This document shows, piece after piece, positions 60,891 through 61,235 of a DNA stretch of 64,000 bases. Under the pieces are notes generated by a model. That model saw only the letters and a program-made list of their open reading frames with translations, did not search any database and was not told where the DNA came from. The position numbers and the translations under genes were made by a program. Source of the DNA: Pseudomonadota bacterium. GTDB lineage: Bacteria; Pseudomonadota; Gammaproteobacteria; Burkholderiales; JAKAFK01. The stretch's first letter is position 1. Each line of letters starts with the position of its first letter. The DNA lies in assembly GCA_021817985.1 (NCBI GenBank), contig JAKAFK010000001.1, forward strand, positions 8,523 to 72,522. Direction: 5' to 3'.

Positions 60891-61006
60891 AGCTAACTGT
60901 AAGTAGACAGAACTATTCAAATGTATGCAGGAGGGTGTTCTGTACAAGCCGTCCCGATATACTGTAACCAGCTGATTCCAAAGTTGCGACGATTTTATCA
61001 TGTCAA
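60891..61006 (-). promoter_or_regulatory. Candidate attI crossover core and cassette promoter region
   Basis: On the minus strand, GTTAGCT (revcomp of 60891-60897) lies 17 nt upstream of the first cassette ATG. TTGACA (revcomp 61001-61006) is followed directly by TGATAAAAT (revcomp 60992-61000), an extended -10-like element pointing into the array. Confidence 0.3.
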
Positions 61007-61038
61007 GCACTCCTGCATACTCAGCATCTCATGCATCG

Positions 61039-61235
61039 ATGCTCATGGAAGTCGTGCGTCAACACATCCGCGCGAAGCACTATGGAACGAAAAGAACGGC
61101 TGGTTAATGCGACCTTGCTGACTGTGTCGAATATACTGCCGACTGGCCGTTTTGGCCGAGGAGCACGCATAGCCTACATGGCTGGTTTGGGAGTGAAGCA
61201 GCCGCACAGCGAACCCCTATGGCCGCGTGGCGTTG
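61039..61235 (+). pseudogene. Integron-integrase (intI)-like N-terminal stub, frameshifted and truncated
   Basis: ATG 61039 gives MLMEVVRQHIRAKHYGTKRTAG*. This resembles the conserved IntI N-terminus (L..vR..IR.rHYS.RTE.aY). Neighbouring frames give ..EKNGWLMR.. and ..GARIAYMAGLGV... It is divergent from the cassette ORFs, as expected for intI. Confidence 0.4.

Follow-up and report, generated by a model that had tools for sequence, protein, structure and literature searches.

The region 60891–61107 of the window (the whole stretch of DNA that was analysed, 64,000 nucleotides in length) is very probably a degenerate integron head, which comprises an attI site, an intergenic region and 28 codons of the integron integrase gene (intI). 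It heads a five-attC array on the minus strand and is functionally a CALIN with an attI, CALIN being the term for a cluster of attC sites lacking an integron integrase (Cury et al. 2016, Nucleic Acids Res, PMC4889954). The platform belongs to a lineage-specific family of Gallionella, Nitrosomonadales and Burkholderiales and heads the minus-strand array from 60.9 to 56.07 kb; on this reading the remainder of intI was lost by a rearrangement at 61083/61084, and no integrase is now made at the locus, which should leave the cassettes fixed.

Data and search strategy

The genome to which the window belongs is a draft of 3.97 Mb in 184 contigs, 96% complete, with about 4% of the marker genes missing. 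In the first comparative search, positions 60880–61240 were compared with 60 genomes of the same order. A later search consisted of two exact-word scans of genome contigs with 17- and 18-mers followed by a blastn filter; the word matches were mostly due to chance, being about as many as expected for the word length, and only blastn-confirmed loci were retained. These are 14 related loci, which are found in Gallionella, Nitrosomonadales and Burkholderiales MAGs.

Comparative DNA was used because the stub of intI is too short for the NCBIfam and Pfam profiles: its 35-aa peptide and the neighbouring frames gave no IntI match in these libraries, and a search of the whole genome with TIGR02249, for which the cut-off of 265 bits was applied to IntI calls, did not flag it. 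The IntI profile used in the search for further remnants was built from 17 relatives, and the covariance model for attC sites was built from the attC sites of the window along with one further site in its own genome. A scan of 55.5–63 kb against Rfam found no family.

Integrase stub

The stub is an open reading frame on the plus strand at 61000–61107, having 35 codons followed by TAA. Codons 1–28 (61000–61083) are homologous to the N-terminus of IntI, and for codons 29–35 homology to IntI was not demonstrable. The peptide MSSTPAYSASHASMLMEVVRQHIRAKHY is 71% identical over 34 aa to the intact IntI of a Burkholderiales MAG (JAIELG01, contig 23; here G043), with E 8e-13 by tblastn and a match at 60994–61098 of the window. 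The G043 gene that overlaps the DNA match scores 472 bits on TIGR02249. In the preliminary description the reading frame 61039–61107, MLMEVVRQHIRAKHYGTKRTAG*, with its TAA at 61105–61107, was correctly read and likened to the N-terminus of integron integrases, and its start was placed at ATG 61039. The likeness holds far beyond chance, and the start has to be moved to ATG 61000, from which the frame is already open and reads MSSTPAYSASHASMLMEVV..., the N-terminus of the G043 integrase being MSNPPAYSAPHAPMLLEVVRERIRAKHYSKRTEQSYTSWIKRF....

The homology is seen more widely at the DNA level. Among the 60 genomes of the same order 60880–61240 gave two strong matches, both in G043, at 76–78% identity. 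By blastn the window is 72–88% identical to 13 integron heads from 60890 or 60900 to at most 61083, while the match to a fourteenth locus (L129) is confined to 61000–61083; the E values for the 14 loci range from 1e-10 to 3e-52. With bona fide IntI genes in an integron arrangement the DNA identity is 76–84%, the upstream attI included, as expected of an intI pseudogene. Only codons 1–28 are left, so that the locus lacks the functional intI of a complete integron; the insertion domain peculiar to IntI, which falls between patches II and III, and the catalytic RHRY residues belong to the portion of the gene that is absent from the window. Judged by these alignments, 60891–61083 is a genuine attI site together with the 5′ end of an integron integrase gene.

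attI site and inverted repeats

The attI core GTTAGCT, of the form GTTRRRY, lies on the minus strand at 60891–60897 and was placed by alignment at the junction of the conserved platform with the first cassette. It was described earlier as lying 17 nt before the ATG of this cassette at 60873, which is exact. The block formed by attI and the intI–attI intergenic region (60891–60999) is conserved in the platform family, the blastn matches of 72–88% to the 13 loci starting at 60890–60900, and it contains a 7-nt inverted repeat, ACAGAAC/GTTCTGT. In an alignment of 14 sequences the block is conserved from the start of intI to ...ACTTAACGTTRGG, and every sequence diverges right past the GTTRRRY core, the relatives sharing sequence up to GTTRG; the end of homology at the core is the pattern expected for a junction of attI with a first cassette. 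The predicted attI adjoins intI, is divergent from it and has its GTTRRRY core at the first cassette. It looks intact in the alignment apart from two changes beside the core, where the window has ACTTACAGTT against ACTTAACGTT in the family; the core-adjacent change reads ACTTACAGTTAGCT against ACTTAACGTTAGG.

An 11-nt inverted repeat, GTATGCAGGAG/CTCCTGCATAC, brackets the intI–attI intergenic region in nearly all of the 14 related platforms. In the window its first arm is at 60923–60933 and its second at 61010–61020, inside codons 4–7 of intI, both as read on the plus strand, and each arm is conserved also in the loci that were seeded by the other. It is possibly a binding site for IntI or for a regulator. 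Upstream of intI the relatives carry CTGTCCTGATATACTG, which by eye differs at one position from a LexA box (CTGT-N8-ACAG) and shares bases with a −10-like hexamer, TATACT; at 60953–60968 of the window the sequence is CCGTCCCGATATACTG, which by eye has two mismatches to this box.

Limit of the integrase homology

The alignment of all 14 relatives reaches its limit at 61083, at the codons for HY, despite 84% identity just before. The preliminary description had carried the homology to 61236 and had taken "EKNGWLMR" and "GARIAYMAGLGV" in other frames for later segments of IntI; these pieces score at chance level by IntI profile, blastn-short and anchored extension alike. Because the frameshifted "W..R" and "FL..LA" pieces do not rise above noise, intI is, as read from the alignments, cleanly truncated at 61083/61084 and not decayed in place up to 61236.

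Between this breakpoint and the neighbouring recombinase relic there remains a stretch of 152 bp (61084–61235), which is without IntI signal and has no match among 60 relatives, in plasmids or in Rfam. As a 3′ flank of the recombinase gene it was rejected, since the homology to the Azonexus plasmid goes no further than the stop codon and the stretch has no plasmid match. A minus-strand off-frame match at 61121–61285 ("KWTTRWKFPS...IRHS", E 0.004–0.03) was considered as the IntI-specific region and also rejected; it overlaps the coding frame of the recombinase relic and is at null level in the IntI profile test.

Two other readings of the stub and its surroundings were weighed. If the resemblance to an integrase were due to chance, the region would hold no integrase remnant and a short open reading frame would merely happen to contain a ..IR..HY motif. 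The failure of the 35-aa peptide to match any general HMM library would agree with this, but the chance reading is already refuted by the blastn and tblastn matches to relatives and its probability is negligible: 191 nt of DNA are homologous (E 1e-30 to 3e-52) to platforms with an intact IntI, and this homology spans the non-coding attI as well as the coding part, in the same arrangement relative to attC arrays. The other reading accepts the integrase and holds that all of 61000–61235 is a frameshifted intI pseudogene decayed in place, the W..R and FL..LA segments surviving in other frames. By eye GAACGG...CTGG.TTAA can indeed be aligned with the RTEQSYTSWIK region of the relatives, given a deletion of about 16 nt, and a lenient local alignment puts 61176–61200 on the DMGAPEVEA codons, a placement that 5 of 300 shuffles score as well and that was not counted as evidence. 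Against this, the best score of the IntI profile in the six read-through frames of 61084–61240 is −0.5 bits, at the level of the shuffle null (−2.0 ± 1.5, 95th percentile 0.4), while the stub scores 13 bits with the same 17-relative profile; in blastn-short the three nearest intI genes yield 18.8 bits, below the null mean of 19.7; and the anchored extension, in which "EKNGWLMR" is joined to "SWIKR" via a 16-nt deletion, gives p 0.23–0.37 against shuffles. None of the 14 relatives aligns beyond 61083, although identity reaches 84% just before. Decay in place is for these reasons improbable, and a clean truncation of the gene is preferred.

Cassette array

Five imperfect palindromes with RYYYAAC...GTTRRRY ends were found behind successive open reading frames on the minus strand, which was read from 61100 to 55200. 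The first cassette has its reading frame at 60385–60873 (162 aa) and its attC at 60318–60379 (51 bits with the covariance model, E 1e-11), whose fold, with z −1.7, is the weakest of the five. The attC of the second cassette is at 59453–59518, and the cassette encodes an FRG-domain protein of 256 aa (59532–60302, minus strand; Pfam PF08867, E 1e-19). The third cassette, with its attC at 57382–57451, is interrupted by an IS5-type insertion sequence whose transposase frame is at 57909–58997. The attC sites of the fourth cassette (56601–56669) and of the fifth, the last detected (56072–56138), are given by fold and covariance model; all five sites are on the minus strand. The frames of the four cassettes other than the second, that of cassette 1 included, gave no Pfam family.

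When folded as single-stranded DNA the five sites form bulged hairpins with paired cores (z −1.7 to −10), four of them folding better than all of 200 shuffles, and the covariance model, when run on the window, returned exactly these five (E 1e-11 to 2e-22). They have the R″/R′ cores and the bulged bottom-strand hairpin by which attC sites are recognized. The window-built model also detected attC sites in five of the relatives, on the cassette side of the attI block and in matching orientation. A sixth canonical attC, GCCCAAC...GTTGGGC, was noted elsewhere in the own genome of the window, at 678–747 of contig C13 (L060, 67 bits). The contig is 8.8 kb long and the site lies near its start, flanked on either side by cassette-like minus-strand frames; it may stand alone or form part of a second array.

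The five attC sites, together with the DNA homology and gene order shared with bona fide IntI platforms, bear out the earlier proposal of an integron platform with an inactivated integrase, whose attI heads the array. A search of the 96%-complete draft for an intact intI, as had been suggested, found no IntI above the TIGR02249 cut-off, the best match being XerD, and the same-genus genome likewise has none above the cut-off. The locus, with five attC sites and no profile-detectable IntI, falls under the definition of a CALIN, which asks for two or more attC sites and no intI within 4 kb. Since the locus makes no integrase and the draft showed none at any other place, we infer that the five-cassette array is probably no longer reshuffled and is fixed in place.

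The array might still be active if an IntI served it in trans, with a gene lying on a plasmid or in genome sequence missing from the assembly. Such service is made conceivable by the attI, which looks intact apart from the two changes beside its core, by the roughly 4% of marker genes that the draft lacks, by the further attC on contig C13, and by a survey in which half of the CALINs came from genomes with an IntI gene (Cury et al. 2016, PMC4889954). It is opposed by the absence of any TIGR02249 match above the cut-off in 3.97 Mb, by the same result in the same-genus genome, and by the state of the locus itself, in which the array is already damaged by the IS5 insertion and the surrounding island is full of dead mobile-element genes. 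We consider continued activity in trans to have only a small probability, and a fixed array is the reading retained.

Candidate outward promoter

An outward promoter at the head of the array had been suggested from TTGACA followed by TGATAAAAT on the minus strand (60992–61006). Both elements are present, TTGACA at 61006–61001 and TGATAAAAT at 61000–60992, but as a pair they do not stand: only 3 nt separate TTGACA from the TAAAAT inside TGATAAAAT, a spacing too short for a −35/−10 pair, and a sigma-70 consensus scan of both strands of 60700–61300 found no promoter. The candidate is the reverse complement of the ATG of intI, its Ser codon and the upstream spacer. In reverse complement TTGACAT gives the start of intI, ATG TCA, and the A/T-rich run corresponds to the spacer that separates the GAGGA ribosome-binding site of the relatives from the ATG; explained in this way, neither element needs a promoter explanation. 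TGATAAAAT alone could act as an extended −10. A conserved −10-like hexamer is also found by eye in the alignment at 60975–60980 on the minus strand, being TAnAAT in 12 of the 14 platforms and TGGAAT here; it lies 20–21 nt downstream of TTGACA and does not form a canonical pair with it. We infer that transcription of the first cassettes would start at some point within the attI–intI region.

Recombinase relic and the surrounding island

An inverted fragment of a different tyrosine recombinase begins at 61236, as was noted in the preliminary description. This relic (61236–61599, minus strand) corresponds to residues ~85–204, the C-terminal 120, of a plasmid-type recombinase of ~204 aa, and is not IntI; for the same reason, its membership in the 204-aa plasmid-type family, 61236–61451 was rejected as an inverted C-terminus of the same IntI. 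To an Azonexus hydrophilus plasmid gene the relic is 78% identical in amino acids over residues 100–205, 86% over the last 71, and 74% in DNA, and homologues are found also on Cupriavidus pMOL30. The nearest intact relative is the 204-aa Azonexus hydrophilus plasmid protein, whose gene adjoins DUF3024 and DUF4357 genes. The relic is damaged by an internal stop, a frameshift and the changes LLGH to LLRR and RYLG to RCLG: GH has become RR and the catalytic Tyr a Cys, with the conserved His and the nucleophilic Tyr both replaced. To the right of it lie a ParE toxin and a PaaA2-like antitoxin, followed by the tail of an IS3-type transposase.

The array, the intI stub, the recombinase relic, the ParE/PaaA2-like pair and the IS3 fragment are all contained in an island of 7.06 kb (55729–62792), in place of which a sister species (same-genus genome G001, contig C95) has 188 bp between a DUF2789 gene and an ATP-grasp gene, the flank order being the same; the difference is due to insertion here or deletion there. 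The flanks are 78% identical to the sister species on the left (55281–55728), 89% on the right (62793–63997) and 91% further left (46000–54247), and the GC content of the island is 54–59% against ~63% in the flanks. A copy of IS1595 at 54248–55281, which is multi-copy in G001, is also extra here. Most likely the 7.06-kb block is of foreign origin and was damaged either before its arrival or soon afterwards.

Related platforms and known systems

The platforms of G043 and of the Gallionella MAG JAUXWM01 (L078) share with the window the attI block, the inverted repeats, the start of intI and its first 28 codons at 76–82% DNA identity, and attC sites of similar type follow in them. They differ in encoding a full-length, stop-free IntI (330 aa, or ~327 aa aligned), whereas the window has 28 codons. 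A full-length, stop-free intI is found at only two of the 14 related loci (L047 and L078), and the rest have stubs or nothing, apart from L039. At this last locus (Gallionella MAG JBAZCE01 contig 32, 2058–5996) intI is cut at residue 280 and three tyrosine-recombinase-like frames lie directly beside the cut on the opposite strand; it looks like an element bearing the recombinase trio inserted into intI. In the second platform copy of G043 (L049; contig C41, ~380–430) intI is cut after ...SWIK and is followed by three tandem 15-nt CACGGCATTCGGGGT. The Gallionella MAGs SO_2017_GW1_251 (L050 and L082) and SO_2017_GW1_10 (L042 and L120) each have two heads on different contigs, with intI decayed or missing in all four. 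From the two full-length genes among the 14 loci and the genomes with two heads it follows that loss of the integrase with retention of attI is recurrent in this lineage.

Integrons with disabled integrases are well known and decay of this kind is ordinary, chromosomal integrons with an inactivated intI being found, for example, in Xanthomonas pathovars. The window shares with the Xanthomonas integrons the divergent layout of intI, attI and cassettes, a disabled integrase and a fixed array. It differs from them in having most of the gene deleted in place of point or frameshift lesions, and in that its array is small and lies in a 7-kb island that the sister species lacks, not at a conserved chromosomal site.

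The locus agrees with the CALINs that have been surveyed (PMC4889954) in its size, which matches the average of ~5 attC, in having mostly cassettes without annotated function and in the presence of an insertion sequence inside the array. It differs in keeping a recognizable attI and 84 nt from the 5′ end of intI, and this shows that it originated by loss of the integrase. In that survey intI pseudogenes were found near only 15 of 279 CALINs, and because a C-terminal profile was used for the search, an N-terminal stub of 84 nt would be missed (Cury et al. 2016, PMC4889954).

Value of the finding

At least 14 betaproteobacterial loci have the block of attI and 5′ intI heading their attC arrays, only two of them with a full-length, stop-free intI. 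It is conceivable, and in our view unlikely, that the block is kept by selection after loss of the integrase, as an expression or regulatory module of the array or as a landing site for an IntI acting in trans. If this were true, the "dead" platforms would be functional units and not debris.

The locus is a clean example of how a CALIN originates: intI was broken off after 84 nt, and attI and the cassettes were retained. Profile searches do not see the remnant, which came to light only when the DNA was compared with lineage-specific platforms; for this reason the figure of 95% of CALINs without a recognizable intI pseudogene (PMC4889954) may understate their origin by integrase loss. The five cassettes are probably fixed and are best annotated as ordinary genes that may be poorly expressed; they encode an FRG-domain protein and several orphan proteins.
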